Shown: piece after piece, positions 3 to 49,735 of the stretch
How positions within the stretch are numbered: position 1 is the first letter of the stretch
Layout: every line of letters starts with the position of its first letter
Source: Lentisphaerota bacterium
GTDB taxonomy: Bacteria; Verrucomicrobiota; Kiritimatiellia; CAIQIC01; Lenti-01
Reading direction: 5' to 3'
Length of the DNA stretch: 64,000 bases
Assembly (NCBI GenBank): GCA_012514035.1
Contig: JAAZBB010000015.1
Coordinates: 31,077 to 95,076, forward strand
Position numbers and translations under genes: made by a program
Notes under the pieces: model-generated
Databases searched by the model: none
The model's input: only the letters and a program-made list of their open reading frames with translations
What the model was told of the DNA's origin: nothing

Positions 3-158
3 ACGCTCGCCGATTTTCACCGCCTGCTGGATTCGTCTTCCGCGCCTGAGCCCGTGAAACAGCGCCTGCGGAAACTGGACGTGTGCTCCTATACCGGACT
101 GGCCGCGCGCATCTGCCGCGATGTTGTGACCGCCGCCGAGCAGGAGGTTCCGGATTGA
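3..158 (+). CDS. 3' end of an unidentified upstream gene (partial; continues left of window)
   Basis: Open frame from the window edge to a TGA at 156-158 that overlaps the purD TTG start (TTGA). The 51-aa tail has no recognisable family. Confidence 0.3.
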   Translation, partial: TLADFHRLLDSSSAPEPVKQRLRKLDVCSYTGLAARICRDVVTAAEQEVPD

Positions 159-1396
159 AGATTGCCGTCATCGGCCGCGGCGGGCGGGAACACGCCCTCG
201 CCTGGAAGCTGGCGCAAAGCGCCGGAACCGGCAACGTGTACTGCTTGCCCGGCAACGGCGGGACCCCGAACAACCGCCCCGTCGCCGAACACGATTATCC
301 GGCCATCCGCGCATTTTGCGCGGCCGAGGGCGTCGAACTTGTCGTCGTGGGGCCCGAGGCCCCGCTGGCCGGCGGCATCGTGGACGCGCTGGGAGGCGGG
401 CGCTTCCGGATTTTCGGTCCGTCGCACGCGGCGGCCCGTCTGGAGGCATCCAAGACGTGGGCCAAGCAGTTCATGCTGCGCCACGGCATCGCCACCGCCG
501 TTGGCGCTTTTTTTTCGTCTCCGCGCGCCGCGAGCCCGCACGTCCGCGCTCAGCCGGGCGGCATGGTGGTCAAGTACAGCGGTCTCGCCGCCGGCAAGGG
601 TGTATTCATCTGCAGCACCCCCGGCGCCGCGCTTGACGCCTTGAAGAAAATCGAAGCCCGCCACGGCGCGGACGCCCCCGTCGTGGTCGAGGAATTGCTG
701 GAAGGTCCCGAGGTCTCCGTCATGGGTCTCACCGACGGCCGGACCATCCAGTTGCTTCCGCCGTCGCGCGACCACAAGCGCCTGCTCGACGGGGACCGCG
801 GCCCCAACACCGGCGGCATGGGGGCCTACACACCCGTGCCCGACGTGGACGCGGCCACCATGGCGGAAATCCACCGGACCATCATCGCCCCTACGCTCGC
901 GGGGCTGGCCAAGGACGGTATCGAGTACCGCGGCTTCCTGTATTTCGGCCTGATGCTGACTGCCGCGGGGCCGAAGCTGCTGGAGTACAACGCGCGGCTG
1001 GGCGATCCGGAAACCGAGGTGCTGCTGCCCGCGCTTGACGGCGATCTGCTGGCGCCGATTCTGGCCTGCTTCGACGGTACGCTGGAGAAGCACCCTTTGG
1101 CCGCCAGACCCGGCGCGGTTCTCGATGTCGTGCTCGCGGCCGGCGGCTATCCGGGCGACATCCGCAAGGGCGATCCAATCACCGGAATTGAACAGGCTGA
1201 CGCGCTGGTGTTCCACACGGGCACCGCAATCCAGAACGGCCAGCTCGTCACCTCCGGCGGGCGCGTGCTGAACGTGGTCGCCCACGGCGCCGACCTCGAA
1301 TCTGCACGCCGCAAGGTCTATGCCGCGTGCGGGAAAATCCATTTTGAAGGCATGCAGTATCGCACCGACATCGGGCAGGGGAGGGCGTCGGCGTGA
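155..1396 (+). CDS. purD: phosphoribosylamine--glycine ligase
   Basis: Translation LKIAVIGRGGREHALAWKLAQS... has the ATP-grasp PurD N-terminus. Start inferred as TTG 155 inside the longer track ORF 83..1396. The stop overlaps the purN start. Confidence 0.88.
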   Translation: MKIAVIGRGGREHALAWKLAQSAGTGNVYCLPGNGGTPNNRPVAEHDYPAIRAFCAAEGVELVVVGPEAPLAGGIVDALGGGRFRIFGPSHAAARLEASKTWAKQFMLRHGIATAVGAFFSSPRAASPHVRAQPGGMVVKYSGLAAGKGVFICSTPGAALDALKKIEARHGADAPVVVEELLEGPEVSVMGLTDGRTIQLLPPSRDHKRLLDGDRGPNTGGMGAYTPVPDVDAATMAEIHRTIIAPTLAGLAKDGIEYRGFLYFGLMLTAAGPKLLEYNARLGDPETEVLLPALDGDLLAPILACFDGTLEKHPLAARPGAVLDVVLAAGGYPGDIRKGDPITGIEQADALVFHTGTAIQNGQLVTSGGRVLNVVAHGADLESARRKVYAACGKIHFEGMQYRTDIGQGRASA

Positions 1397-2007
1397 TTCC
1401 GCGCATCGCCATCCTGATATCCGGCCGCGGCAGCAACATGGTCGCGCTGGCCGAAAGCGTGTGTAGCGGGGTGCTGGCCGGGTGCTGCGAAATCGCGGCT
1501 GTGATCTCGAGCCGCCCCGGCGTTCCGGGGCTTGCCAAGGCGCAGGAACTGGGCCTGCCGATCGTCGCGCTCGACGCCCGCGCCTTGGGCAAGGAAGCCT
1601 ATGACGCCGCCTTGCTGCTGGCCCTGGAACAGGCCCGCGCCGACGTGGTTGTGTTGGCCGGATACCTGCGCATTGTTTCGCCGCGGGTGGTCGCAAAATA
1701 CCGCGGCCGGATTTTGAACATCCACCCGGCCGACACGAAGCTCCACCAAGGACTCCACGGCTACGAGTGGGCCTTCGCCAACGAATTGGCTGCGACGAAA
1801 ATCACCGTCCATCTCGTGGACGAAGGCCTCGACACCGGCCCCGTCCTCGCGCAGCGCGAGGTGGATCTCCGCGGCACAGGCATCCTCGAAGAAGTCGAGC
1901 GCCGCGGCCTCGCCGTCGAACACCGGCTTTATCCCGAAGCCTTGAAAACCTTTTTAACTACGAATTACCCGAATTTCGCGAATGGAACCCCATCCTGTGA
2001 ATCCTGA
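1393..2007 (+). CDS. purN: phosphoribosylglycinamide formyltransferase
   Basis: IAILISGRGSNM...HPADTKLHQGLHGYEWA is the PurN family. GTG start overlaps the purD stop (GTGA). The last ~17 codons are encoded by the CGAATT/ATCCTG repeat element. Confidence 0.85.
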   Translation: MIPRIAILISGRGSNMVALAESVCSGVLAGCCEIAAVISSRPGVPGLAKAQELGLPIVALDARALGKEAYDAALLLALEQARADVVVLAGYLRIVSPRVVAKYRGRILNIHPADTKLHQGLHGYEWAFANELAATKITVHLVDEGLDTGPVLAQREVDLRGTGILEEVERRGLAVEHRLYPEALKTFLTTNYPNFANGTPSCES

Positions 2008-2042
2008 ACCATCCTGTAATCCTGTCTAAAAAAAATATAATT

Positions 2043-3476
2043 ATGTGTGGAATCCTGGGCATCATCGGACACGACGACATCGCCGGCACGCTGCTGGAGG
2101 GCCTGACAGCGATCCAGCACCGCGGCCAGGACGCCGCCGGCATTGTCACCTTCAACCACCGCTTTCACCTGCACAAGGCCGACGGGCTCGTCAGCCAGGC
2201 CTTCAAAAAGGTGGACCTGGCGCGGTTTTCCGGCCGGATCGGGCTGGGTCACGTGCGCTACGCCACGCAGGGCTCGACCGACGTGCTCGATGCGCAGCCG
2301 ACGGTGGTGATGTATCCCTTCGGCCTTGCGATGGTCCACAACGGCAACGTTGTCAACTTCAGCCAGCTCAAGCAGACGCTCTGCGAGGATGCCCACCGTC
2401 TGCTGGACACATCCAACGACGTGGCCCTGATCCTCTACGCCCTCGCTGCCGCGCTTGAAACCAAGAATCTGAAAGCTCTGACTCCCGACGCCATTTTCGA
2501 TTCGGTGCAGGCGGTGCAGGACAAGGTGCAGGGCGCGTATTCGGCGCTGACGATCATCGCTGGCCACGGTCTGCTGGCCTTCACCGATCCCCACGGCATC
2601 CGGCCGCTGGTGCTCGGCCGCAAGTACACCGACCGCGGCATGGTCTACGCCTTTGCCTCGGAAACCGACTGTTTCGATTATCTCGGCTTCGAGCTGATGC
2701 GCGACCTGCGGCCCGGCGAGGCCGTGCTGATCGACACCGCCGGCAAGGTCCACAGCCGGATCTGCCGCGCTGGACCGCAGGCCTTCTGCGTGTTCGAGTA
2801 CATCTACTTTGCGCGCGAGGATTCGGTGATCAACGGACGGCTGGTGGCCAGCGAACGCGTGTGCCTCGGCCGGCAGCTCGCCGAGCAGGTCCGCAAGGCG
2901 GGGCTCCAGCCCGACATTGTGATTGATGTGCCCGCGTCGGCCTATTTCTTCGCCTCCGGAATGGCAGAGGCGCTGGGCGTGCCTTACCGCCGCGGGCTCG
3001 CCAAGAACAACCACATCGGCCGCAGCTTCATCGTGCCGAACCAGGCGCGCCGCGAAAAAATCGTGCGCCAGAAGCTCAACCCGCTCAAGGATGTTGTGCG
3101 TGGCCGAAAGGTGGCGGTTGTGGACGACTCGATCGTGCGCGGCACGACCTCGAAGCACATCGTCAAGCTTCTGCGCGAGAGCGGCGCCGCCGAAATCTAC
3201 TTCGTTTCCGCGGCGCCGCCGATCACGTGCCCCTGCATCTACGGCATCGACATGTCCGTCAAACGGGAGATCATCGCCGCCCATTACGATCCCAGGCAGA
3301 TCGCCCGCTATCTCGAAGCCGACGCCGTCATCTACCAGTCGCTCGACGACCTGCGCGCGCGCTACTGCGATCTGCCCTGCTGCTATGCCTGCTTTTCGGG
3401 CGAGTATCCCACCGGCGCATCGGAGGAAGTCCTCAAGCAATTCGAACAGGAGAAGGAATGCTCCGCCCGGATCTAG
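2043..3476 (+). CDS. purF: amidophosphoribosyltransferase
   Basis: MCGILGIIGHDD... with Ntn-hydrolase Cys2 and a PRTase domain (VVDDSIVRGTT). Confidence 0.95.
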   Translation: MCGILGIIGHDDIAGTLLEGLTAIQHRGQDAAGIVTFNHRFHLHKADGLVSQAFKKVDLARFSGRIGLGHVRYATQGSTDVLDAQPTVVMYPFGLAMVHNGNVVNFSQLKQTLCEDAHRLLDTSNDVALILYALAAALETKNLKALTPDAIFDSVQAVQDKVQGAYSALTIIAGHGLLAFTDPHGIRPLVLGRKYTDRGMVYAFASETDCFDYLGFELMRDLRPGEAVLIDTAGKVHSRICRAGPQAFCVFEYIYFAREDSVINGRLVASERVCLGRQLAEQVRKAGLQPDIVIDVPASAYFFASGMAEALGVPYRRGLAKNNHIGRSFIVPNQARREKIVRQKLNPLKDVVRGRKVAVVDDSIVRGTTSKHIVKLLRESGAAEIYFVSAAPPITCPCIYGIDMSVKREIIAAHYDPRQIARYLEADAVIYQSLDDLRARYCDLPCCYACFSGEYPTGASEEVLKQFEQEKECSARI

Positions 3477-5329
3477 AACACATCGCCGTCCTCGATTTCG
3501 GCGGGCAGTACGCGCACCTGATCGCGAACCGCGTGCGCGGGCTGGGCGTCTACTGCACCGTGCTGCCGCCCGAGAATTTTCGGCCGGGCGCCGATCCGCG
3601 CCTCGCCGGCCTGATCCTCTCCGGCGGCCCGCAGTCGGTGTCCGCCGACCACGTGGCCCTGATGCAGCCCCGGCTCGCGGGCTTCACCAAGCCGATCCTC
3701 GGGATTTGCTTCGGCCACCAGTTGCTCGCCAAACTGTTCGGCGGCGGCCTCGCCCGCGGCCGCGAACGGCAGTACGGTCCCACACCCATCCGCTGCGATC
3801 CGAGGACGCGGCTCTTTCATGAATTGCCGGCGGAGCAATTGGTTTGGATGAGCCACGGCGACCACGTCGCCCAGCTGCCGGACGGCTTCCGTGCCACGGC
3901 GTCAGCCCCCACGTGCGCCATTGCGGCCTACGAGGCGGAAGGCCGCCCCGTCTTCGGCCTGCAGTTCCATCCCGAAGTCGTCCACACCCCCCATGGCAGC
4001 GCCATGCTCAGGAATTTCCTCGAATTGTGCGCCATCCGCACGCCATGGATCCCCGAAAGCATGAAGCAACGCGTCATCGGGCAGACCCGCCAGGCGGCCG
4101 GAGATGCCATGCTCTTCCTGCTGGTCTCCGGCGGCGTGGATTCGCTGGTGACGTTGCAGGTATGCATCGCGGCCGTCGGTGCCGACCGCGTCCGCTCACT
4201 GCACGTGGACACCGGCCTGATGCGCCTCGGCGAGTCGGATGACATCCTGAAATTCCTCGCCGCCGAAGGCTTCCGCAACATCGAAATCGAACGCGCCGAG
4301 CCGGTCTTTTTGCGCGAGCTCGCCGGCGTGGCCGACCCGGAGCAAAAGCGCGCCATCATCGGCCGCCTGTTTGTCGAAGTCCTGCGGAAGAAATTGCAGG
4401 CGCTGAACCTCGGCGACAACTGGAAACTGGTGCAGGGCACGATCTATCCCGACACCATCGAAAGCGGTGGCACCCCGAACGCCGCCAAGATCAAGACTCA
4501 CCACAACCGCGTGCCGGAAATCCAGGCCATGATCGAGCGCGGACTCGTCGTCGAACCCCTGCGCGAACTCTACAAGGACGAGGTCCGCCGGCTCGGCCGC
4601 GAACTCGGCTTGCCGCAGGCCCTGCTCGACCGCCATCCGTTCCCCGGCCCCGGCCTTGGCATCCGCCTGCTCTGCCACGACGGCCAAACGCCAGTGCCCC
4701 CGGAATTCGCCGATCAGCCGCGGCTTGACCACATTTTGCAGTCTGGAGCCGGGACGCCCTCGTCCCGGAAATCTAAATCCACCCGACGAGGGCGTCGGGT
4801 CTCCATTTTGCAAGGCCGCATCCTGCCGGTGAAGAGCGTCGGCGTGCAGGGCGACGAACGCTCCTACCGCCATCCGGCCGTGATCTGGAACCCGGCCGGC
4901 AAACTTCCGGATTGGCCAATGCTCAACACCCTCGCCAACCGGCTCGTCAACGAATTGGCCGACATCAACCGCGTCGTGCTCTGCCTCGACGACCTGACCC
5001 GCGAGCACTTCGAGCTGCGCAAAATGTTCGTCACCCGCGAAGGACTTGATCGGTTGCGCCGGGTGGACGACCTCCTGCACAGTTGCATCGCGCACATCCC
5101 GGAAATCTGGCAGGCGCCGGTCATATCGCTGCCGCTGTTCGACCGGCAGGGCAACCAGGCTTTCGTGCTGCGTCCGGTCTGCTCGAAGGATGCCATGACG
5201 GCCGACGTGTATCCCATCGCTTTCGATTTGCTGGCCGAGCTGGCTGAAAAAGTCCGCGCCGTGCCTGGCGCCGGGCACCTCTTCTACGACCTGACCACCA
5301 AACCGCCGGGGACCATCGAATGGGAATGA
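3458..5329 (+). CDS. guaA: GMP synthase (glutamine-hydrolysing), long form with duplicated C-terminal dimerisation-like region
   Basis: Class I GATase (GICFGHQLL, HPEV), PP-loop SGGVDS, C-terminal KPPGTIEWE. ATG 3458 overlaps the purF 3' end by 19 nt. 623 aa against a typical ~520. Confidence 0.88.
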   Translation: MLRPDLEHIAVLDFGGQYAHLIANRVRGLGVYCTVLPPENFRPGADPRLAGLILSGGPQSVSADHVALMQPRLAGFTKPILGICFGHQLLAKLFGGGLARGRERQYGPTPIRCDPRTRLFHELPAEQLVWMSHGDHVAQLPDGFRATASAPTCAIAAYEAEGRPVFGLQFHPEVVHTPHGSAMLRNFLELCAIRTPWIPESMKQRVIGQTRQAAGDAMLFLLVSGGVDSLVTLQVCIAAVGADRVRSLHVDTGLMRLGESDDILKFLAAEGFRNIEIERAEPVFLRELAGVADPEQKRAIIGRLFVEVLRKKLQALNLGDNWKLVQGTIYPDTIESGGTPNAAKIKTHHNRVPEIQAMIERGLVVEPLRELYKDEVRRLGRELGLPQALLDRHPFPGPGLGIRLLCHDGQTPVPPEFADQPRLDHILQSGAGTPSSRKSKSTRRGRRVSILQGRILPVKSVGVQGDERSYRHPAVIWNPAGKLPDWPMLNTLANRLVNELADINRVVLCLDDLTREHFELRKMFVTREGLDRLRRVDDLLHSCIAHIPEIWQAPVISLPLFDRQGNQAFVLRPVCSKDAMTADVYPIAFDLLAELAEKVRAVPGAGHLFYDLTTKPPGTIEWE

Positions 5330-6663
5330 AGTTTCAAATCCGAAATGCCTGCTGGCTCGGCGACGACGCCTGGTTCCACCACGGCACAATTTCCATCGCG
5401 AACGGTCGCATCATGAAGCTGGAGAGCGACTTTGCCAGCGACACGCCATCCGCCGGCGAATTCATTGTGCCGGGGCTGATCGATGCCCACGTCCACCTGC
5501 GCGAGCCGGGGCAACCCTACAAGGAAGGCATCGCCAACGGGACGCTCGCCGCGCTCAAGGGCGGCGTGACCACCGTGCTCAACATGCCCAACAACGTGCC
5601 GCCGACCGCCTCCCTCGCGCGGCTCGAAGCCAAGCGCGCGCTGTTCGCCCAAAAATCGCGCGTCAACTACGGCCTGTTTTTGCAGGCCCGCATCGGCGGC
5701 CCGCGCGCGCCGGAGAGTGCCGCCGGCGTCAAGATCTACATGGCCAAATCGTCCGCCCTGGCCGCGGTCCGCGACCCCGCCGCTCTCGCCCAGATCTTCC
5801 GCCTTCAGAACCGCGTGGTCGTCCACGCCGAGGACGAGCGGGAGTTTTCCACAGGGTGGAAAAAAAGTTTCCACAGGGTGGAAAAAACGGGCGAAATTTT
5901 CCACAGTGTGGAAAAAAGTTTTCCACAGTGTGGAAAACTTCCCCATCACCTGCGCCGGCCGCGGGCGGCGGTGGTTGCGGCCTTGCAGAGCATCGCCACG
6001 GCCTGGCGGCGGGTGCCACCGAAAGAGCGGCCGCGGCTGGTCATCGCCCATTGCAGCACCGTCGAGGAAATCGACTGGGTGCGGAAGATGAAGCGGCAAG
6101 GCCACGACGTTTGGGCCGAAACCTGCCCGCACTATTTCCTGTTCACCGAACAGGATGATCGCGCGCGCGGCCCGGCATTGCAGGTGAATCCGCCGCTGCG
6201 GACCGAAGAAGACCGCGCGGCGGTTTTTGCGGCGGTGCAAGACGGCGGCATTGATTTCATCTCGACCGATCACGCGCCGCATTTGCCGAAGGAAAAGGCG
6301 GCGGACTCGCCGCCGTCGGGCATCGCGGGCCTGGAATGGTTCGGGCCGGTTTTGCTGACGCTGACCATGCGCGGGGAAATCTCGTGGCAGCGCTACCTAA
6401 AGCTGGCCGGCCAAAAGGCCGCGCAGTGCTACGGGATCGAAGGCCGCGGGCTGGTGCGCGAAGGCGCTTGGGCCGATCTGGCGATCGTGGCGAACAAGCC
6501 GCCGGCGGCGGCCCAGGAAAAAATCGTGACCCGTGCAGCGGTTCACCCCTATCCGCAGTTCGAATTCGCCGTCGGCATTCGGGCTACGCTGGTCAACGGA
6601 CGGCTGGCATGGACGGATGGGCGCGTGCGACCCGGCGTACACGGCAGGGAGGTGTATGGGTGA
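5320..6663 (+). CDS. pyrC: dihydroorotase (amidohydrolase superfamily)
   Basis: DAHVHLREPG HxH motif, VHAEDE, TCPHYF, STDHAPH. Sits in pyrimidine gene context. Carries an in-frame AT-rich tandem repeat at 5845-5938. Confidence 0.8.
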   Translation: MGMKFQIRNACWLGDDAWFHHGTISIANGRIMKLESDFASDTPSAGEFIVPGLIDAHVHLREPGQPYKEGIANGTLAALKGGVTTVLNMPNNVPPTASLARLEAKRALFAQKSRVNYGLFLQARIGGPRAPESAAGVKIYMAKSSALAAVRDPAALAQIFRLQNRVVVHAEDEREFSTGWKKSFHRVEKTGEIFHSVEKSFPQCGKLPHHLRRPRAAVVAALQSIATAWRRVPPKERPRLVIAHCSTVEEIDWVRKMKRQGHDVWAETCPHYFLFTEQDDRARGPALQVNPPLRTEEDRAAVFAAVQDGGIDFISTDHAPHLPKEKAADSPPSGIAGLEWFGPVLLTLTMRGEISWQRYLKLAGQKAAQCYGIEGRGLVREGAWADLAIVANKPPAAAQEKIVTRAAVHPYPQFEFAVGIRATLVNGRLAWTDGRVRPGVHGREVYG

Positions 6664-7280
6664 AGACCGACACGCGGCAATTTGTTCAGTTTCTCGTGGA
6701 CAGCGGCTGCCTGAAGTTTGGCGACTTCCAGCTCAAGTCCGGCGACCGTTCGCCGTTCTTCGTCAATCTCGGTCAGGCCGACAGCGGGGCCAAGCTGGAC
6801 GTACTCGGCCGTGCGCTGGCCGCGGCGGCGGCCGCGGCGTTTCCGCAGGCGACGCTGCTGTTCGGGCCGGCCTATAAGGGCATTGCGCTGGCGGTGGCCA
6901 CGGCGGCCGCGGCGTGGCGGCACCACAACCGCGATTTCCGGTTTTTCTACGACCGCAAGGAGGCCAAGACGCACGGTGAGCGCGGGCTGTTCATCGGGCA
7001 TCTGCCCCAGCCCGGCGAGGCGGTGGTGTTGGTGGACGACGTGCTGAGCGACGGCGGTACCAAGGTGGCGGCCATGGCGGCGATCGAAGCCGCGTTCCAG
7101 ACCCGCCCCGTCGGCATCGTGGTGGCCGTAGACCGGCGCCGGCGCGCCACGCCGCTGCCCACAGGCCTGCCTCCCGTGGCGGCGGTCGTTACGCTGCCCG
7201 ACCTGTGCGACTACCTCGCCGAGACCGGCGACGCCGTCCGCCTGAACGCCATGCAAAAATTTTACGAAGGAGAAAAGTGA
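6660..7280 (+). CDS. pyrE: orotate phosphoribosyltransferase
   Basis: FVQFLVDSGCLKFGDFQLKSGDRSPFFVN...VLVDDVLSDGGT PRTase motif. Start inferred as GTG 6660 overlapping the pyrC stop. Confidence 0.82.
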   Translation: MKTDTRQFVQFLVDSGCLKFGDFQLKSGDRSPFFVNLGQADSGAKLDVLGRALAAAAAAAFPQATLLFGPAYKGIALAVATAAAAWRHHNRDFRFFYDRKEAKTHGERGLFIGHLPQPGEAVVLVDDVLSDGGTKVAAMAAIEAAFQTRPVGIVVAVDRRRRATPLPTGLPPVAAVVTLPDLCDYLAETGDAVRLNAMQKFYEGEK

Positions 7281-8032
7281 TGGCCAAGCAATACAAAATC
7301 ATTCCTGCGCTCGACACGGCCGACCTCGGCGCGGCGCTGCGGCTGGTGTGCCGCGTGGCGGGGCGCGAATCCGTCTACGGTTTCAAGCTGGGCTTCGCGC
7401 TGGGGCTGGGCCATGGCCTGCCCGAGACCGTCCGGCGCATTCGCGAGTGGACCGACAAGCCCCTGATCTACGACCACCAGAAGGCGGCCACCGACATTCC
7501 AGACACGGGTGCGCTTTTCGGCGACGTGATGAAAACGGCCGGCATCAACGAGGTGATCCTGTTTCCGCATACGGGCCCGCGCACGCTCGCGGCGTGGACG
7601 CAGGCGCTGCAGGAACGGGATCTCAAGGTCATTGTCGGCGCGGTGATGACGCATCCGGCCTATCTGGTATCGGAAGGCGGGTTCATCGCCGACGCGGCCG
7701 CGGCGGCGATCTGCAAGCAAGCGGCGGGATTGGGTGTAGCGGCGTTCGTGGTGCCGCTGACCAAGCCGGAAGTCGTGGCCAAATTGGCGCAGGAGGTGCC
7801 CTTCACGGTCCAGCAGGAATTCTACTCGCCGGGCTTCGGCGCGCAGAAAGGCGACCCGGCGCGGTTTCCAATGCTGGCCAGGCATTACCTGATCATGGGC
7901 CGGTCGCTGCTTGCCGCCGCGGACCCGGCGAAGGAACTGGCCAACACCGAAAAACAACTGGGAATAGGAGAGGCGACAGGATCCACAGGATGGACAGGGA
8001 TAAAAGCAGGATCGAAATCCTGTACATCCTGA
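7280..8032 (+). CDS. pyrF: orotidine 5'-phosphate decarboxylase
   Basis: IIPALDTADL...LIYDHQKAATDIPDTG (D-x-K-x-x-D-I-P-x-T motif). ATG overlaps the pyrE stop. C-terminal tail is encoded by the CAGGAT/ATCCTG repeat block. Confidence 0.75.
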   Translation: MAKQYKIIPALDTADLGAALRLVCRVAGRESVYGFKLGFALGLGHGLPETVRRIREWTDKPLIYDHQKAATDIPDTGALFGDVMKTAGINEVILFPHTGPRTLAAWTQALQERDLKVIVGAVMTHPAYLVSEGGFIADAAAAAICKQAAGLGVAAFVVPLTKPEVVAKLAQEVPFTVQQEFYSPGFGAQKGDPARFPMLARHYLIMGRSLLAAADPAKELANTEKQLGIGEATGSTGWTGIKAGSKSCTS

Positions 8033-8060
8033 TCATCCTGCAATCCTGTCTAGAACGAAT

Positions 8061-8996
8061 ATGAAAAAAGACCTGATCTCGATTGACGACCTGCGGCTGG
8101 AGCAGATTCTGAACTATCTCGACCTCGCGGCGCGGGTGGCGGCGATTCCGGACGCGGAAAAGTTCCGTTTCCTGCCGGGGCGGATTCTGGCGACGCTGTT
8201 CTTCGAGCCCAGCACGCGCACACGGCTGAGCTTTGAATCGGCCATGACCCGGCTCGGGGGACGGGTCATCGGGTTTTCGGAGGCGGCGGGCTCCTCGACG
8301 GCCAAGGGCGAATCGTTCTCCGACACGATCCGGACAGTGGAGCAGTATGCCGATATCATCGCAGTGCGGCACCCGAAGGAGGGCACAGCGCGGCGGGCGG
8401 CCGAGATCAGCCGCCTGCCGATCCTCAACGCCGGCGACGGCGCGAACCAGCACCCGACCCAGACGCTGCTGGACCTCTACACGATACGCAAGTTCTTCGG
8501 CCAGGTGGACGGCCTGCGGATCGCATTGGTGGGGGATTTGAAATATTCGCGCACGATCCATTCGCTGTGCCGGGCGCTGCTGATGTTCGACGGGGTGGCC
8601 ATGACCCTGGTGTCGCCCGAGAGCTTGAAACTGCCCGGCTACCTGCTGAAGGCGGCCAAAGGAACAACGGCCACCTTCCGCGAGACCAGCAGCCTGGAGG
8701 AGGCCATCCGCGAAACCGATCTCGTCTACATGACCCGCATTCAGAAGGAGCGTTTTCCCGACGTGGTGGAGTACGAAAAGGTCAAGGATGCCTATGTGCT
8801 GGAGGCCGGAATGCTCGCCGGCGTACCGGCCCGCTTCAAGGTGCTGCATCCGCTGCCGCGGGTGAACGAGATTTCGCCGGACGTGGACGCCACGCCGCAT
8901 GCGGGCTATTTCGAGCAGGCCCGCAACGGCGTGATCATGCGCGAGGCCCTGATCCTCGACTTGCTCGATGCCCGGCCGGCAAGGAGCACGCCATGA
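8061..8996 (+). CDS. pyrB: aspartate carbamoyltransferase catalytic subunit
   Basis: STRTRLSFE, HPTQTLLDLYTI and HPLP motifs. Confidence 0.95.
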   Translation: MKKDLISIDDLRLEQILNYLDLAARVAAIPDAEKFRFLPGRILATLFFEPSTRTRLSFESAMTRLGGRVIGFSEAAGSSTAKGESFSDTIRTVEQYADIIAVRHPKEGTARRAAEISRLPILNAGDGANQHPTQTLLDLYTIRKFFGQVDGLRIALVGDLKYSRTIHSLCRALLMFDGVAMTLVSPESLKLPGYLLKAAKGTTATFRETSSLEEAIRETDLVYMTRIQKERFPDVVEYEKVKDAYVLEAGMLAGVPARFKVLHPLPRVNEISPDVDATPHAGYFEQARNGVIMREALILDLLDARPARSTP

Positions 8997-9472
8997 CTCC
9001 CCAGAGCCAGATTCTCCTGATTCCCAAGATCGAATGCGGCTATGTGATCGACCACATCCCGGCCGGGCTCGGCATCCAGGTCATGGCGCTGATCGGGTGC
9101 CATCCGGAGCTGGAGGCAGCCGTGGTGACGCTGGGCCTGAACTACAAGAGCACGCGGATGGGCCGCAAGGACATGATCAAGCTGCAGACGAAATCCCTGC
9201 CGCCGCGGCTGCTGCAAATGCTGGCGCTGGTGAGCCCTGGCGTGACCATCAAGCGCATCGCCAACTATGAGGTGGTCGAGAAGGTCGTGATCCAGGTGCC
9301 GGAGCTGTTTGACAATCTGGCGCGCTGCATCAACCCCAACTGCATCACCAACGTCGAGCCGCACATCGGGACGCGCTTCAAGCGGCTGGAATCCGGTTCG
9401 CGGCATTTCAAGTGTGCGCACTGCGAGCGCGTCTGCACGCTCGACGAACTGGCGGGGCACCTCAAGGCATGA
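8993..9472 (+). CDS. pyrI: aspartate carbamoyltransferase regulatory subunit
   Basis: MTPQSQILLIPKIECGYVIDHIPAG... and a C-terminal Zn-binding Cys cluster (CINPNCITN...CAHCER). ATGA overlap with pyrB. Confidence 0.9.
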   Translation: MTPQSQILLIPKIECGYVIDHIPAGLGIQVMALIGCHPELEAAVVTLGLNYKSTRMGRKDMIKLQTKSLPPRLLQMLALVSPGVTIKRIANYEVVEKVVIQVPELFDNLARCINPNCITNVEPHIGTRFKRLESGSRHFKCAHCERVCTLDELAGHLKA

Positions 9473-10401
9473 ATCCGCTAGCCGTCCGGATTGCCGGAAT
9501 CGCGCTTGAATCGCCGCTGGTGCTGGCGTCGGGGGTGCTGGGTACGACAGCATCCTCGCTGCGGCGGGTGGCGCAGGCGGGCGCGGGGGCGGTCACGACG
9601 AAGTCGTGCAGCCTTGCGCCGCGCCCGGGGCATCCGGCCCCGTGCATCCTGCCGTGGAAGGGCGGGATGCTCAACGCCGTCGGGCTGTCCAATCCGGGCA
9701 TCGAGGGCGCGCTGGAGGAAATTACCGAATACCGGCGGACCTGCCGGACGCCGCTGTTCGTCTCGATCTTCGCGGGCAGCCCGGCGGAGTTCGGGGAATT
9801 GGCGCAGCGGGTTGCGGCGGCCAAACCGGATTTGATCGAAGTCAACGTGTCCTGCCCGAACGTGGAATCCGAATTCGGCGCGCCCTTCGCCGCGGACCCC
9901 GCCGCCTGCGCGGCGGTGACGCGGGCGGTGAAGGAGAACGCCGGCGGCATTCCGGTTTCCATCAAGCTCGCGTCGCAGTGTGCCTCCATCGCGAAAATGG
10001 CGGAGGTCTGCCAGCGGAGCGGGGCGGACGTGCTCACGGCCATCAACACGGTCGGCCCGGGGATGTGGATTGATCCCGGCGCCGGCCGGCCGGTGCTGTC
10101 GAATCTTGTCGGCGGCGTTTCCGGAACGGCCATCCTGCCCATCGCGGTGCGGGCGGTCTACGAAATCCGCCGCGCGGTGGATTTGCCGATCATCGGCACG
10201 GGCGGGGTGTCGTGTGCGGCGGATGCGCTGCAACTGATCATGGCCGGGGCGGACGCCGTCGGCCTCGGCAGCGCCATCTACGGCGGCGGAATCGGCTTGT
10301 TCGACGAGATCAATCGAGGATTGGCCGATTTCCTCCAGAGCCGGGGATATCAGTCCCTGCACGAGGTTCATGGAATGGCGCACGAAAAAGGCAAGCCATG
10401 A
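9469..10401 (+). CDS. pyrD: dihydroorotate dehydrogenase catalytic subunit (class 1B)
   Basis: TIM-barrel DHODH motifs (GVLGTT, NTVGPG, IGTGGV). Followed by a pyrK-like gene. ATGA overlap with pyrI. Confidence 0.9.
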   Translation: MNPLAVRIAGIALESPLVLASGVLGTTASSLRRVAQAGAGAVTTKSCSLAPRPGHPAPCILPWKGGMLNAVGLSNPGIEGALEEITEYRRTCRTPLFVSIFAGSPAEFGELAQRVAAAKPDLIEVNVSCPNVESEFGAPFAADPAACAAVTRAVKENAGGIPVSIKLASQCASIAKMAEVCQRSGADVLTAINTVGPGMWIDPGAGRPVLSNLVGGVSGTAILPIAVRAVYEIRRAVDLPIIGTGGVSCAADALQLIMAGADAVGLGSAIYGGGIGLFDEINRGLADFLQSRGYQSLHEVHGMAHEKGKP

Positions 10402-11195
10402 AAAGTTTGGCATTGCCCAGTCATGAAATGCACACGCTGCCGATCGAGGACATCGTCGTCCACCACGAAGGGCTGAAGAGTTACCTGTTCCGCCAGACGT
10501 TCGATATCGAGCCGGGGCAGTTTGTGATGCTGTGGCTGCCGGGCGGGGACGAGAAGCCGTTTTCGGTGTCCGATGTGCGAGACGGGCGGATCGAAATCAC
10601 CGCCCGGGCGGTCGGACCGTTTTCACGCGCGCTGATGGCCTGCAAGGTCGGCGGTTTTCTCGGCTTGCGCGGGCCGTTCGGACGCGGTTTCCGTCCGCGC
10701 GGGCGCGGGCTGATCGTGGGCGGCGGCATAGGCATCGCGCCGCTGCGCTATCTGGTCCACCGGCTGGCGCAGGACGGTATGGAATGCCAAATCGCCCTTG
10801 GCGCGCGCACGGCCCGGGAGTTGATGTTTGCCGCCGACTTTGTACGCCGGGGGGCGCGGCTGGCGACGGATGACGGGAGTTTGGGCGAAAAAGTCATGGT
10901 GCTGGCGCTGGCCGAACGGCTGTGTGCCGCCGAAAAGTTTGACGTGATCTACGGTTGCGGGCCGGAGGTCCTGTTGGTCGGGCTTCATCAGTTGGCGGCG
11001 ACAGTTGGCTGCGACTGCCAGCTTGCGCTGGAACGCCACATGAAGTGCGGGATCGGCATCTGCGGAAGCTGTTGCGTGGACGGCAGCGGCATCTGCATCT
11101 GCCGCGAAGGGCCCGTGCTAGATCGCGCGGAGCTGGACCAGGTGGCGGATTTCGGCCGGCCGCATCGCGACGCCACCGGAGCCCGGAAGAATTGA
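10398..11195 (+). CDS. pyrK: dihydroorotate dehydrogenase electron-transfer subunit
   Basis: FAD/NAD-binding fold plus a C-terminal 2Fe-2S Cys cluster (CGIGICGSCCVDGSGICICREGP). ATGA overlap with pyrD. Confidence 0.85.
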   Translation: MKSLALPSHEMHTLPIEDIVVHHEGLKSYLFRQTFDIEPGQFVMLWLPGGDEKPFSVSDVRDGRIEITARAVGPFSRALMACKVGGFLGLRGPFGRGFRPRGRGLIVGGGIGIAPLRYLVHRLAQDGMECQIALGARTARELMFAADFVRRGARLATDDGSLGEKVMVLALAERLCAAEKFDVIYGCGPEVLLVGLHQLAATVGCDCQLALERHMKCGIGICGSCCVDGSGICICREGPVLDRAELDQVADFGRPHRDATGARKN

Positions 11196-16671: not shown

Positions 16672-16690
16672 AACAGCCGGGGAACCTTAA

Positions 16691-17101
16691 CTACGAATTA
16701 ATCGAATTGCACGAATGGGAAGGGGCTAGAAAACGTTCATATTCCAATTTGGGATAGTGACTGAAATTGACCAGCAAAGCCAGTATCTTGCCGGTAGCTT
16801 TCAGGTAATTGATGACTTGGGCGCGGTGTTCGTCGCTCAAGTTCTTTGCCGACTTGATTTCCACGATGATTTTATCGAAACAGAGAAAATCCGGTTGATA
16901 AGTTTGTTTGAGGGATTTCGTTTTGTAGCACAGTTTCAGTTGGGGATGCTCGATAAATGGGATGCCTTGATCTCTGAACTCCATTGCCAGGCATTCCTGA
17001 TAGACCGCTTCCAGGAATCCGTGTCCCAATTGATTGTAGACTTCGAAACAGGCTCCAACGATCTTGAAGCTTTCTTCCTTGAACAGGATTTCGGTTTTCA
17101 T
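16691..17101 (-). CDS. GxxExxY protein (PDDEXK_3 nuclease-superfamily-like)
   Basis: GACFEVYNQLGHGFLEAVYQECL matches the GxxExxY signature. Local GC is roughly 40% against ~65% in the flanks. Its ATG lies inside a 27-bp terminal inverted repeat. Confidence 0.7.
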   Translation of the reverse strand: MKTEILFKEESFKIVGACFEVYNQLGHGFLEAVYQECLAMEFRDQGIPFIEHPQLKLCYKTKSLKQTYQPDFLCFDKIIVEIKSAKNLSDEHRAQVINYLKATGKILALLVNFSHYPKLEYERFLAPSHSCNSINS

Positions 17102-17141
17102 TCGTTTAATTCGCGCAATTCGTAGTGGGTCTTCCGGCGGT

Positions 17142-21138: not shown

Positions 21139-21158
21139 CATGGTGGATGGGATCGGGG

Positions 21159-21557
21159 CGCATCTCCGTTTCATTGACTTGCATTCCATTTTCCCCCTTC
21201 CTGTGGCCAGAGCCGGCCAGAGACCTCTCCAGAAACCCAACCGTCCGGGCATTGAGCCAACGCGCCCTGCCAACGACCAACAGCCGGCCCGGTCACCGCC
21301 CGGGCCTACAGCAAAACCAAGCCGCCCGCCCGCTGTCCGCAGGACCTGCATACCGGCGGTTGCTTTGGAATTTGCATAAGTAGGTTATGGTTCGGGCGGG
21401 CCCCACCACCTTGTGTGGTGGGGGAGCAAACTTTGCCTCCCATGGCGCAAGGCCATGGGGGGGCGAAACAACCAAGTTCATCACCCATATTAGCAAGGCT
21501 CAATAAAGAAACCGCCATCCCTTGCCCCACGGTCGCTGCCACTCATGTCAATGAACC
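21159..21557. repeat. mosaic interspersed repeat block (modules B', A, D')
   Basis: 21159-21363 is the reverse complement of 49312-49521. 21380-21483 is about 95% identical to 43422-43532. 21506-21557 is the reverse complement of 49244-49294. Confidence 0.85.
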
Positions 21558-21634
21558 GAAGAGGCGGCCCATGAGATCGTTGATTGATTGGTTCTGATTG
21601 AGTTCTGCGCCGGGGATTGGCATGATGCCGCCCT

Positions 21635-25114: not shown

Positions 25115-25304
25115 GCTCCAGCCGGAAGGCCGCCCTGCAAACACGCTCCGTTCGCAGTCCACGCTTCAGCGTGCGGAAATTCCTGCGCCCAGCCACCAAG
25201 CCCGCGCCCCGCGAAGACCTTTACATCCCCGAAATCATCTGTCAGTCTCATCTTGATGTATTTGCCGGTGGAATAGCCCCGGGCGGCAGGGAGAATGGGC
25301 CCCA

Positions 25305-27292: not shown

Positions 27293-27738
27293 CCGCAGAG
27301 GACCGCAGAGGAACACAGAGAAATATCCCGTGCTTAGCAGGAAAACAGGAAACCCAGGAAAACAGGAAGGGAATGATAGCCATTTTTCTATCACGCGAAG
27401 GCATGAAACCACCGGCTGCGGACAGGGAAGGCAGGGACGCCACTGAAACCTTCTCACGCTGAAGCGGGTACTAATAACGAGTTGTGTTTGTAGTCCAGCC
27501 TTTCAGGCTGCAAATTCGGCTTTTTATCGCGAAAAACGCCCCTTTTTGATGAAAATTTCAATAAATTGCCGGATTTTTGATTATTTTGCCTAAAAAATGC
27601 CTAAAAAATGCCAAAAATATGCCAAATTTTCCTGTTTTCCTGTTTTTCCTGCTTTCTTGCTTCGGTTTTGGGCTGTTCCTCCTGTAAATTTTGAAAAATT
27701 CTGTTCCTCCTGTCTAAATTCTTAGTAATTTGACCAAA
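27293..27738. promoter_or_regulatory. AT-rich structured intergenic region with inverted (CAGGAAAA)x3 / (TTTTCCTG)x3 arrays and TGCC-A6 tandem repeats
   Basis: 27338-27369 CAGGAAAACAGGAAACCCAGGAAAACAGGAAGG and 27627-27652 TTTTCCTGTTTTCCTGTTTTTCCTGC are inverted. TGCCTAAAAAA appears twice in tandem. TTCCTCCTGTCTAAATT appears twice before the ATG at 27739. Confidence 0.5.
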
Positions 27739-31389: not shown

Positions 31390-31608
31390 TCAGTTGCTGG
31401 CGTGGGCGGCTCTCCACGCCCCGTGGATTTCATGCCGGGCGAAGATTCTTCCGGGCTGGCGGCCCAGCAGCAGGACGCGCTCGCCGTCCTTGTCGGTCCA
31501 TTCCGTGTTGTTTTGCTCGCACTTTTCGAAGGGCTTGAGCGTGGCGGGATCCGGCAGCCCTTCGACGATGGTGTCAGTCATGACATCCGGGCCCGTGTTG
31601 TAGAGCAC
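31390..31608 (-). pseudogene. duplicated 3' fragment of the GT32 glycosyltransferase gene at 34800-35582
   Basis: The 72-aa ORF is more than 90% identical to the C-terminal 70 aa of the 34800-35582 protein. The underlying 235-bp DNA (31418-31652) is about 96% identical to 34825-35059. Confidence 0.7.
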
Positions 31609-31778
31609 GCCATACTGCGACAGCGGGGCATGGGCGTTGCGCCCCAGGCGTTATAATGGGCCATCTGGCCATTTGTTCTTGGATCCTCGGCGGGCGGAAT
31701 TGAGTGTCCGCCGCGGCAGGCCAACATGCCGCTAGCTTATATTAAGAAACACCCATGGGGTGGCGGGAGGCCGCGATT

Positions 31779-34799: not shown

Positions 34800-35582
34800 C
34801 TATTTTGCATGCGCCTCGCGCCATGCCCCGTGGATTTCATGCCGGGCGAAGGTTTTGCCGGGCTGGCGGCCCAGCAGCAGGACGCGCTCGCCGTCCTTGT
34901 CGATCCATTCCGTATTGTTGTGCTCGCACTTTTCGAAGGGCTTGAGCGTGGCGGGATCCGGCAGCCCTTCGACGATGGTGTCAGTCATGACATCCGGCCC
35001 CGTGTTGTAGAGCACGCCATACTGCGACAGCGGGGCATGGGCGTTGCGCCCCAGGCGTTCCTGAATCCGGTTCAGGCACCGGGCCAGAATGGGCGAGTGG
35101 GGACGGCGGCTCCAGAAGACATAGTTGGCGATCCGCACGTTGTATTCCGGAACCTCCCCGCGAAACTCCCGGGTCATGGCCATGTTTTTCTGGACGGCCT
35201 CGTCGCTGTTTACGAATTCCGTCCAAGCCACGAAATCGGGTCCAGTTGGCACGGGCTTGCGTCCCCATTCAATATCGTGGTCGGAATAGATGCCCGCGCG
35301 GTCGTAGATCAGCAGCAAACGCAGGATGTCGGATCGCATCACCGGCGACGTGTAGGGTGCCCAGAAAAGTTCATAAATTCCCGGGAATTGGTCTTGATGC
35401 CGGGCCAAAAGGGCCCGGGTCTCGGCTTGACTGGACCACAGGATGACTTTTGCGCCCCGCGGCTTCCGTTTGTCCAGCGATCGCAAGTACCCGGTCGGAA
35501 TCGGATTGCCGTCGTTTTCCAGCCAGATCTTGTAAACTAGAACGACTGACTGAGGGGCAAAAGGCCAGCGGAAGAATTTCAT
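34800..35582 (-). CDS. glycosyltransferase family 32-like (DXD sugar-binding region)
   Basis: LLLIYDRAGIYSDHDIEW resembles the Gly_transf_sug DxD region. Start set at MKFFRWPF (ATG 35582). Confidence 0.58.
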   Translation of the reverse strand: MKFFRWPFAPQSVVLVYKIWLENDGNPIPTGYLRSLDKRKPRGAKVILWSSQAETRALLARHQDQFPGIYELFWAPYTSPVMRSDILRLLLIYDRAGIYSDHDIEWGRKPVPTGPDFVAWTEFVNSDEAVQKNMAMTREFRGEVPEYNVRIANYVFWSRRPHSPILARCLNRIQERLGRNAHAPLSQYGVLYNTGPDVMTDTIVEGLPDPATLKPFEKCEHNNTEWIDKDGERVLLLGRQPGKTFARHEIHGAWREAHAK

Positions 35583-42068: not shown

Positions 42069-42228
42069 GGGCGTTATTCCACAGGCGGAACGCAGCACTT
42101 TAGCGGCGTTCAAGCGAACAAATGACCCATAAGTATGGCGGCAAGGATGCGTTTTAGGCAAACGTATTTTGGCGGTTTAGATCTGGCGATCGGGCGCAGC
42201 CCGGTTCCATTGACAACGATTGGCCAAA

Positions 42229-42440
42229 TTTGGAGTGCGGCGGGAAGCGAGGCTCGGCGATCGCCACGCCGCTTTTTGTTTTTGGGGAGGCAGCCGAACG
42301 GTCAGCCATAACAGCCGGAACAGCCAAAGCGGGGCCGCCTCCCGTTGGTCGTTGTCCCCGCACTCCAAACCGATCCGCGCAATTTGGAGTGCGGCGGGAA
42401 GCGAGGCTCGGCGATCGCCACGCCGTTTTGGGGGGTGCCC
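42229..42440. repeat. interspersed repeat module C (one full and one partial tandem copy)
   Basis: 42229-42369 is about 90% identical to 49522-49664, with TTTGGAGTGCGG...CCGCACTCCAAA terminal inverted ends. A second partial copy sits at 42381-42425. Confidence 0.85.
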
Positions 42441-43421: not shown

Positions 43422-43532
43422 GTAGGTTGCGGTTATGGTTCGGGCGGGCCCCGCCACCTTGTGTGGTGGGGGAGCTAACTTTGCCTCCCATGGCGCAAGG
43501 CCATGGGGGGGGCGAAACAGCCAAGTTCATCA
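43422..43532. repeat. interspersed repeat module A (solo copy), two GC-rich hairpins
   Basis: About 95% identical to 21380-21483. The hairpins are CCCC(A/G)CCACC-ttgtg-TGGTGGGGG and CCCATGGC-gcaag-GCCATGGG. Confidence 0.85.
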
Positions 43533-49084: not shown

Positions 49085-49160
49085 TGGAGCCAAAGGTCGG
49101 ATTCGAACCGACGACCGTCGCATTACGAATGCGGTGCTCTGCCAGCTGAGCTACTTTGGC
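49085..49160 (-). tRNA. tRNA-Thr (anticodon CGU)
   Basis: Reverse complement folds as a cloverleaf: acceptor GCCAAAG/CTTTGGC, D-arm GCTC-AGCTGGCA-GAGC, anticodon loop TTCGTAA (CGT), T-arm GTCGG-TTCGAAT-CCGAC, encoded CCA. Closely resembles canonical tRNA-Thr(CGU). Confidence 0.9.
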
Positions 49161-49216: not shown

Positions 49217-49735
49217 TGCGCGGTTGTTTCCGGGCGTCTCTCCGGTTCATGGACATGAGTGGCAGGGACCGTGGGGCAAGGGATGGCGGTTTCTTCAGGA
49301 TTTTGACGGCGCGAAAACCAACCGCCGGCATGCAGGTCCTGCGGACAGCGGGCGGGCGGCTTGGTTTTGCTGTAGGCCCGGGCGGTGACCGGGCGGGCTG
49401 TTGGTCGTTTGGCAGGGTGCGTTGGCCAAATGCCCGGACAGTTGGATTTCTGGAGAGGTTTCTGGCCGGCTCTGGCCACAGGAAGGGGGGGGATGCAAGT
49501 CAATGAAACGGAGATGCGCCCTTTGGAGTGCGGCGGGAAGCGAGGCTTGGCGAGCGCCACACCGCTTTTTCTGGGTGCAGCCGAACCGGCGGCGGAACAG
49601 CCAACAGCCGGAACAGCCAAAGCGGGGCCGCCTCCCGTTGGTCGTTGTCCCCGCACTCCAAAAAGGCCGGCCGATGGGAGTCAGATATTTCATGTCCGGT
49701 CGGTCAATGACACAGAGATGCGCGGTTGTTTCCGG
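49217..49735. repeat. composite repeat element (modules D-B-C) bounded by 17-bp direct repeats TGCGCGGTTGTTTCCGG
   Basis: Direct repeats at 49217-49233 and 49719-49735. D at 49244-49294, B at 49312-49521 and C at 49522-49664 match the copies at 21159-21557 and 42229-42369. Confidence 0.85.

Follow-up and report, generated by a model that had tools for sequence, protein, structure and literature searches.

A probably once-mobile, gene-less palindrome between pyrF and pyrB of a Lentisphaerota bacterium and its likeness to the intervening sequences of 23S rRNA

The DNA analysed in this study, referred to below as the window, is a stretch of 64,000 nucleotides (nt) from a Lentisphaerota bacterium (GenBank assembly GCA_012514035.1, contig JAAZBB010000015.1, positions 31,077 to 95,076 of the forward strand). 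The element under study is a palindromic block of short repeats located at the junction of the genes pyrF and pyrB. The nucleotide-synthesis genes of the window (83-11195, together with L001 upstream) form one long co-directional string in the order purC/E, purB, purD, purN, purF, guaA, pyrC, pyrE, pyrF, pyrB, pyrI, pyrD and pyrK. Most junctions in this string are overlapping or tight, a recognisable Shine-Dalgarno sequence is found at few start codons, and the string is kept in every relative examined. Proteins identical to PyrB and ArgRS of the window carry names of Kiritimatiellae/Kiritimatiellia metagenome-assembled genomes (MAGs), the group to which this organism belongs. The gene calls are backed by the Pfam families OMPdecase, OTCace, Formyl_trans_N, GATase/Pribosyltran and GT4, which support purN, purF, pyrC, pyrE, pyrF, pyrB and pyrI as well as a GT4 gene.

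The block consists of a left arm of CAGGAT units and a right arm of ATCCTG units followed by a TCTAGAA box (Table 1). A previous sequence-only reading of this DNA had described four units in each arm. The sequence was found exactly as quoted there, but one of the left-arm units, the third, carries an extra nucleotide (CAGGGAT). The TCTAGAA box, whose family consensus was derived from the position weights of 150 arrays, ends 5 nt upstream of the pyrB start codon (ATG at 8061), while the pyrF stop codon (TGA, 8030-8032) is located within the right arm. The phased triple ATCCTGN{2,4}ATCCTGN{2,4}ATCCTG is matched four times, exclusively within 1992-2024 and 8017-8048 of the window, against 0.00 in dinucleotide shuffles. 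When one mismatch at most was allowed, TCCTGTCTARAA was matched three times in the window, with 0.11 matches expected. The RNA structure prediction for 7960-8065 gave -37.9 kcal/mol (z = -3.9), and none of the 200 shuffles was equally good. This supports the earlier suggestion that the two arms are able to fold into a long hairpin.

Table 1. Positions of the repeat arrays, cassettes and related features in the window
Feature	Position	Strand	Description
CGAAT-type left arm at purN–purF	1954..1985	+	TTAACTACGAAT..CCGAAT..GCGAAT; translated as PurN tail
ACAGGAT-type right arm before purF	1992..2031	+	ATCCTG x4 and TCTAAAA; without complementary partner
Element-derived C-terminal extension of PyrF	7967..8032	+	~20 residues past the ..LGI end of relatives
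Left arm at pyrF–pyrB	7975..8012	+	GACAGGAT, CAGGAT, CAGGGAT, CAGGAT; ACAGGAT-type heptamers, phasing 9, 9, 12 nt
CAGGAT units of the left arm	7977-7982, 7986-7991, 8007-8012	+	
Third unit of the left arm	7995-8001	+	CAGGGAT, 1-nt insertion
Loop of the predicted hairpin	8013..8016	+	CGAA
Right arm at pyrF–pyrB	8017..8048	+	ATCCTG x4 starting at 8017, 8026, 8035, 8043; spacing 9, 9, 8
Terminal box	8049..8055	+	TCTAGAA; family consensus ATCCTG-T-C-[T/C/A]-A-A
Full GxxExxY cassette	16687..17130	-	Arrays CGAAT x3 / ATTCG x3, inverted, at 16687-16719 and 17099-17130
Variant element before the GT4 gene	27336..27719		CAGGAA x4 (27336-27368), 260-nt non-coding insert, TTCCTG x3 (27629-27651), CCTCCTGTAAA, CCTCCTGTCTAAAT

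The left arm is translated and contributes to the tail of PyrF. Within this 251-residue protein, the OMPdecase domain stops at residue 221. The PyrF proteins of relatives (77-89% identity) have no such tail; they are all 230-232 residues long and cover 92% of the query. We therefore conclude that the tail is encoded by the element, as had been proposed. The same proposal held true for PurN, the stop codon of which (2005-2007) lies inside the ATCCTG array upstream of purF.

The search of Rfam over the whole window at the gathering thresholds yielded nothing relevant, the only match being a tRNA. Over 7850-8150, no relevant Rfam match was obtained at E <= 10, riboswitch and leader families (PyrR, purine) included. 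The scan of the purN–purF and pyrF–pyrB junctions detected no promoter and no plus-strand terminator; the single match of the terminator scan was weak and on the minus strand. A tblastn search of 7900-8100 for a remnant of a GxxExxY or four-helix-bundle gene found nothing significant.

For the comparison of orthologous junctions, seven related species were used (L129, L130, L131, L212, L213, L214 and L215). The pyrF–pyrB site is empty in L131 and L214, where the two genes are 1 nt apart (TGA-T-ATG), and in L213 there are 8 nt between them. The junction of L130 contains a palindrome of 3+3 units (TTTAGACAGGAT GAA CAGGAT TTA CAGGAT, loop, ATCCTG TGA ATCCTG TAA ATCCTGTCTAAG), and that of L129 a copy with 4+4 units around a loop of 30 nt. 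In both of these species the arms start with TTTAGACAGGAT. As GATCGAAATCCTGT is common to the copies of L130 and the window, these copies are orthologous. The fold of the orthologous hairpin was predicted at -47.3 (z = -11.3) for L130 and at -46.8 (z = -5.5) for L129. The pyrF stop codon of L129 and L130 is the TAG of TTTAGACAGGAT (TTTAGAC); it is lost in the window, where translation of pyrF continues across the left arm. The inverted ends of the element are clear, and comparing filled sites (L129, L130) with empty ones (L131, L214) revealed no direct duplication.

L215 and L212 have a remnant of the element (TTTAGAGAGGAT), downstream of which lie a CGAA array and a GC-rich hairpin. The array and the hairpin GGGCGGTCTCGCCGAGACCGCC, located at 7700-7800 in L215 and at 7710-7810 in L212, are common to both species and replace the ACAGGAT right arm, which indicates turnover of elements at a single junction. 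Solo palindromes of other types were found at other junctions, namely the CACGGAT type at guaA–pyrC and pyrB–pyrI of L215 and the CGCAAAT type at pyrB–pyrI of L213. Since the pyrF–pyrB junction is empty in relatives and other types are present elsewhere, we conclude that the element is an insertion, that it is not bound to pyrB and that the operon can do without it. These junctions bear out the earlier description of the block as a recurring, inserted and possibly mobile element.

The third codon positions of pyrB are ~66% identical among the three element-bearing species, so a perfect hexamer is expected with a chance of 0.66^6 = 0.08 per pair. Across the three species, 20 of the 22 hexamer units are perfect. 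The spacers, by contrast, have diverged at nearly every matched position (a single one of those compared is common), and the loops are different as well. As the conservation of the units is far from the neutral expectation of ~0.08, they must be either selected or continually homogenised.

The family scan was performed with phased ATCCTG triples and one genome per species and returned at least 120 stretches; all the counts for this family refer to the matches listed. The architecture TTTAGACAGGAT..loop..ATCCTGTCTAAA with 9-bp phasing is shared by at least a dozen phyla, as counted from the record titles. About a quarter of the arrays lie within called open reading frames (ORFs), and several of these are evidently codon repeats; the remaining arrays have the features of the window element. 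The carriers include Verrucomicrobiota, Kiritimatiellia, Lentisphaerales, Acidobacteriota, Gemmatimonadota, Gamma- and Betaproteobacteria, Desulfobacterota, Chloroflexota, Armatimonadota, Planctomycetota, Cyanobacteria, Bacteroidota and others, as well as one MAG labelled archaeal. Thioalkalivibrio denitrificans, Thiobaca trueperi and Arsenicibacter rosenii are cultured strains among the carriers. No close relatives of the window are among these matches (at least 120 loci).

In most arrays the last unit is followed by T-C-[T/C/A]-A-A (81%, 61% and 63% at the informative positions). At least 51 CAGGAT..ATCCTG palindromes are present, usually with a 3+3 layout; the loop has a median length of 36 nt, and 142 of the 182 unit steps are 9 bp long. 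By rough gene calls, 20 palindromic copies lie between co-directional genes, 12 between convergent and three between divergent ones. Half arrays have no orientation bias with respect to the neighbouring genes. Such a placement resembles that of repetitive extragenic palindromic (REP) elements and not that of promoters or operators. Exact complementarity between spacers of opposite arms was found in 14 of 72 pairs, while 4.3 are expected; the palindrome is genuine, though not perfect.

In Thioalkalivibrio denitrificans, one inner palindrome with an identical loop is nested within outer arms at two loci, which points to its having been copied as a unit. Both the complete inner palindrome and the outer arms are of the ACAGGAT type (2870-3190 and 6330-6512 of L016). 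CACGAAG/CTTCGTG arrays are nested within ATCCTG arms at 1800-2000 of L122. The nesting in L122 and L016 suggests that elements have inserted themselves into the loops of others already in place. A higher-order array was observed in a Deltaproteobacteria MAG (L070, 1-640), where at least five tandem 112-bp units each combine one arm of ATCCTG x3 with one of CAGGAT x3. The sole candidate inside 23S rRNA in this search, from a Cytophagales MAG (L072, 6510-6600), turned out to be a 23S–5S spacer hairpin of GATCCTGAAA x4 and TTCAGGACAGGG x3. Both its unit and its arm order (opposite) differ, and it was not used as evidence.

Judging by their sequences, the full-length members of this class enclose a small gene between the arms, coding for either a GxxExxY protein (PD-(D/E)XK fold) or a putative four-helix bundle. 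The arrangement CTAGACAGGATTAACAGGATT-[GxxExxY]-AATCCTGTTAATCCTGTTAATCCTGTCTAG was found between gyrB and gyrA in L027, with ends identical to those of the window element. A set of 80 metagenome loci (L132-L211) was picked solely by GxxExxY protein similarity. The arrays flanking these genes are inverted and phased and belong to the types ACAGGAT, ACAGAAT, CACGAAT, CACGGAT, CGCAGAT, CGCGGAT and CGCAAAT. The strict ATCCTG triple is present in 20 of the 80 loci, and its orientation around the gene was correct in the ~10 loci inspected by eye. On the proper strand of each flank, generic heptamers number 2.4-2.5 per 135 nt, compared with 0.65-0.9 in the controls. At least two heptamers on both proper sides were found in 31 of 55 loci, against eight in the reverse arrangement. 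The identity of the GxxExxY proteins is 63% within a heptamer type and 53% between types, and none of 2000 permutations gave so extreme a result. Residues D69, E79 and K81 are kept in the alignment and can be read as a putative PD-(D/E)XK catalytic triad. The second gene type is represented by L102, in which a four-helix-bundle-like ORF, called by sequence motifs, is flanked by inverted AAGTC arrays; its neighbours look like murD and ftsW.

We found no description of flanking arrays in the literature on GxxExxY, PDDEXK_3 and PF05635. Likewise, no paper on arrays around GxxExxY genes or on gene-less operon copies was found in a search that had most subscription journals outside its reach, and full-text searches for the repeat strings and the sister heptamer strings returned no relevant paper.

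The window itself carries a full GxxExxY cassette, which sits between argS and a gene of the metallo-beta-lactamase fold. The cassette gene (16691-17101, minus strand) is an intact GxxExxY gene (PDDEXK_3, TIGR04256, PF13366); in the strain L003, it is broken into a 49-residue fragment and an overlapping 122-residue ORF. The PDB sequence search with the GxxExxY protein of the window gave no match. The outer end of this cassette, TTAACTACGAAT, is identical to that of the left arm at purN–purF. The purF-side copy is a half or chimeric element, in which a CGAAT x3 arm is followed by an ATCCTG x4 arm, and it has no fold (z = -0.2). The purF start codon is the ATG at 2043. Among relatives, the right-arm unit at purN–purF varies between ATCCTG (9 nt), ACCCTG with a 7-nt period and CAACCA. 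In L130 (4830-4870) it is CAACCA(C) x5, while in L131, L214 and L215 it consists of ACCCTGA-type 7-mers.

The sequence-only reading had placed one and the same box before pyrB, purF and the GT4 gene. The box is indeed shared by purF, where ATCCTG x4 is followed by TCTAAAA. Upstream of the GT4 gene (ATG at 27739), the box (27708-27719) reads CCTCCTGTCTAAAT and is part of a TTCCTG/CTCCTG variant instead of an ATCCTG array. In this variant element, two CCTCCTGT(A/C)(A/T)AA boxes precede the GT4 gene. A tblastn search of its 260-nt insert (27368-27629) for a GxxExxY or four-helix-bundle remnant found nothing significant. The insert contains GCCTAAAAAAT-type tandem repeats at 27588-27625 and a 48-nt stretch that is inverted relative to 25126-25173. 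The GC content falls to 0.52 in the kilobase around 27336-27719.

Two further kinds of repeats were observed in the window. The pyrC gene (5320-6663) holds an in-frame insertion (5842-5942) of four TTTTCCAC-N3-GTGGAAAA palindromes with a 22-bp period, translated as FSTGWKKSFHRVEK..FHSVEKSFPQCGK. The insertion is at the same place in all eight related species and has ~1-4 units, the PyrC proteins being 431-479 residues long. Its half-site TTTTCCACA fits TTWTNCACA, the DnaA-box consensus; a DnaA-box reading of these repeats was considered and set aside. Longer repeats of 60-250 nt, 81-100% identical, are dispersed in direct and inverted orientation (21156-21569 and 49232-49521; 21383-21463 and 43431-43511; 42217-42429 and 49510-49662; 31400-31652 and 34807-35059). 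One group of them adjoins the tRNA at 49088-49160. These longer repeats may be another repeat or mobile family of this genome.

The nearest described relative of the pyrF–pyrB element is the group of 23S rRNA intervening sequences (IVSs) of Coxiella burnetii, Leptospira and Salmonella. The 23S IVS of Coxiella burnetii has a 28-bp terminal stem with two to three tandem GACAGAT heptamers, the number of which varies between strains, and RNase III cleaves it at the first repeat (PMC4990558). The 23S IVSs are regarded as selfish, with their mobility being unknown (PMC4990558). As in an IVS, the terminal inverted repeats of the window element give a long stem. The heptamer core is also alike (GACAGAT in Coxiella; GACAGGAT, GACAGAAT and CACAGAT here), and the number of units is variable. 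A further likeness is that full copies hold a small S23p/four-helix-bundle ORF in the loop and that this ORF decays. The differences are as follows. The window copy is located in an mRNA operon junction and not in helix 9, 25 or 45 of 23S rRNA. It has a 4-nt loop without an ORF, whereas related copies contain one (L027, L132-L211, L102 and 16691-17101 of the window). Its units are 9 bp apart, while those of the IVS abut at 7 bp. The partner gene of the family is mostly GxxExxY (PD-(D/E)XK) instead of S23p. Finally, the IVS is cut by RNase III, whereas for the window element cleavage is only predicted. Our verdict is that the window element is an IVS-like element outside rRNA.

The closest functional analogue is the REPIN/RAYT system, the defining features of which are lacking here (PMC3116915, PMC3337134). 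Common to both are short palindromic doublets dispersed between genes, mostly at gene 3' ends (PMC3116915, PMC3337134), a protein gene flanked by inverted repeats, a repeat type that co-varies with the protein lineage, and long vertical persistence. However, the window element has no GTAG or CGTC tag, its arms are phased heptamer arrays and not a single 20-40-bp palindrome, and the unit is common to many phyla. The flanked protein has a PD-(D/E)XK fold or is a four-helix bundle, and it is not a Y1 (HUH, IS200/IS605-like) transposase. Miniature inverted-repeat transposable elements (Correia, Nezha, RPE-type) are likewise small non-coding insertions with terminal inverted repeats and with presence or absence at orthologous sites, and they also extend or sit inside ORFs, as in the PyrF and PurN tails here. 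In contrast to them, the window element has no visible target-site duplication and no related insertion sequence with a recognised transposase, and its ends are built of sub-repeats in variable number.

With moderate confidence, we regard the block as a "solo" palindrome, gene-less, IVS-like and probably mobile in the past, which forms a hairpin in the operon transcript and belongs to a cross-phylum class. It looks like selfish DNA that is tolerated between operon genes, and not like a switch for pyrB. The class would be characterised by heptamers (here ACAGGAT) phased at 8-10 bp in two inverted arrays with the outer ends TTTAGACAGGAT ... ATCCTGTCTAAA. The data show that the block belongs to this family by its architecture; they also show the insertion polymorphism, the association with GxxExxY genes and the conservation of the hexamer units against neutral drift. 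Slippage and homogenisation clearly act on the arrays as well.

According to the mechanism that we propose, the element would have entered the pyrF–pyrB junction in the ancestor of a few Kiritimatiellia species and would have been inherited vertically since then. In the polycistronic transcript, the arms are predicted to pair into a long imperfect hairpin. By analogy with the IVS stems, this hairpin is a likely substrate of RNase III or a stabiliser of 3' ends, and its processing would uncouple pyrF and pyrB without specifically regulating them. The ends of the element could supply a stop codon for the upstream gene (TAG/TGA in the left end) and an A-rich leader for the next ATG, and because of this the element could be tolerated between the stop and start codons. 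The units may be bound sequence-specifically by a trans-acting factor, most plausibly by GxxExxY proteins, which may mobilise the elements as RAYTs do REPINs.

Several observations weigh against this interpretation. The differences between the purN–purF units point to slippage or homogenisation in situ, which can mimic both mobility and selection. Neither a target-site duplication nor a sharp insertion boundary was seen, and the palindrome runs into the flanks in L026 and L117. The species of the window is common in metagenome assemblies (JGI, ENA), and its eight contigs do not differ from one another at either junction, which gives no hint of recent movement at pyrF–pyrB. As only 14 of the 72 spacer pairs are complementary, the hairpin is imperfect. 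Orthology and host phylogeny confound the link between the heptamer type and the GxxExxY clade; the ACAGAAT loci, for example, are one orthologous cdsA–dxr cassette. In addition, the 64 kb covered of this organism yielded no GxxExxY gene with flanking ACAGGAT arrays.

Two other explanations are unlikely in our estimation, to a similar degree. According to one of them, the arrays are local simple sequences that arose by slippage and inverted duplication at AT-rich junctions and have neither mobility nor function. The number of units does differ between species (3+3 and 4+4), as do the units and periods at the orthologous purN–purF junctions (ATCCTG with 9 nt, ACCCTG with 7 nt, CAACCA), and the variable heptamer number among Coxiella strains and the 112-bp tandem array of L070 also fit this explanation. 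It is opposed by the recurrence of the hexamer, the outer ends and the CAGGAT-then-ATCCTG order across about a dozen phyla. The specific association with GxxExxY genes, which were chosen independently of the motif, the identical inner elements at two loci of one genome and the empty junctions in relatives argue against it too.

According to the other explanation, the arrays are double-stranded DNA binding sites that benefit the host by serving a chromosomal protein in nucleoid organisation or in repression of the ribbon-helix-helix kind, and the RNA structure is irrelevant. This would suit hexamers that are conserved in spite of spacers being non-complementary in 58 of 72 pairs, as well as the persistence of non-folding half elements in several species. 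The 9-bp phasing also resembles that of the tandem sites of the omega, ParR and MetJ type. However, no candidate host protein was identified, the complementarity of the spacers is three times that expected by chance (14 against 4.3), and placement at gene ends instead of divergent promoter regions does not suggest repression.

The sequence-only reading had regarded the block as a regulatory cassette placed before selected genes. The arrays would then be gene-specific operator or RNA-leader sites controlling purF and pyrB, which we consider quite improbable. ATCCTG x4 and the TCTA box do stand 5-11 nt upstream of the start codons of these genes, which code for the first committed steps of purine and pyrimidine synthesis, and the hexamers are conserved against neutral drift. 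Nevertheless, the operon is the same in L131, L214 and L213, where 1-8 nt separate pyrF from pyrB and the element is absent, and other relatives bear different elements at guaA–pyrC and pyrB–pyrI. The element is found in many phyla between unrelated genes (gyrB–gyrA) and at convergent gene ends, and half arrays lack an orientation bias. There was also no promoter, plus-strand terminator or Rfam match, and the claim is not supported.

It is very unlikely that the block serves as a terminator of transcription, intrinsic or bidirectional, between the two genes. The hairpin is strong, and the location of copies in other genomes, REP-like at gene 3' ends, would agree with termination, but in the family a T-run precedes and an A-run follows the hairpin (TTTAGAC...GTCTAAA), which is the reverse of a terminator. 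No plus-strand site was found besides the weak minus-strand match, and a terminator here would silence pyrB, pyrI, pyrD and pyrK, joined downstream by overlapping or tight junctions. We give hardly any credence to CsrA-type translational control via the CAGGAU units: the left arm reads ACAGGAUC, ACAGGAUG, ACAGGGAU and GCAGGAUC, which resembles the CAGGAUG repeats of CsrB and the CsrA consensus from systematic evolution of ligands by exponential enrichment (SELEX), but the GGA motifs are paired in the predicted long stem and not exposed in loops, the sister types ACAGAAT, CACGAAT and CGCAGAT have no GGA within an identical architecture, and copies occur in the archaeal-labelled MAG and in cyanobacterial and Bacteroidota genomes, lineages that to our knowledge mostly lack CsrA.

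The interpretation of the block as a solo IVS-like palindrome can be extended to a wider proposal, which we put forward as tentative and rather doubtful. The heptamer palindromes, the GxxExxY and four-helix-bundle cassettes and the 23S rRNA IVSs might constitute one undescribed cross-phylum mobile superfamily. Its small PD-(D/E)XK protein would recognise its own arrays and mobilise both the cassettes and the solo copies, much as in the REPIN/RAYT system. Because host RNase III would cut the stem out of the RNA, the elements could colonise rRNA as well as tight operon junctions.

For annotation, the finding means that insertions of this kind add spurious tails to the C-termini of proteins (here PyrF and PurN), that translated repeats become "hypothetical proteins", and that the elements can be mistaken for regulatory sites. 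Since Thioalkalivibrio denitrificans ALJD and Thiobaca trueperi DSM 13587 are cultured carriers, experiments on the family are feasible. If the wider proposal is true, the intervening sequences of 23S rRNA, a puzzle of long standing, would be the visible tip of a far larger family that is also present in the protein-coding operons of many phyla. The GxxExxY protein and the four-helix-bundle "IVS protein", both of which are very common and of unknown function, would then gain a testable role and a defined nucleic-acid partner.

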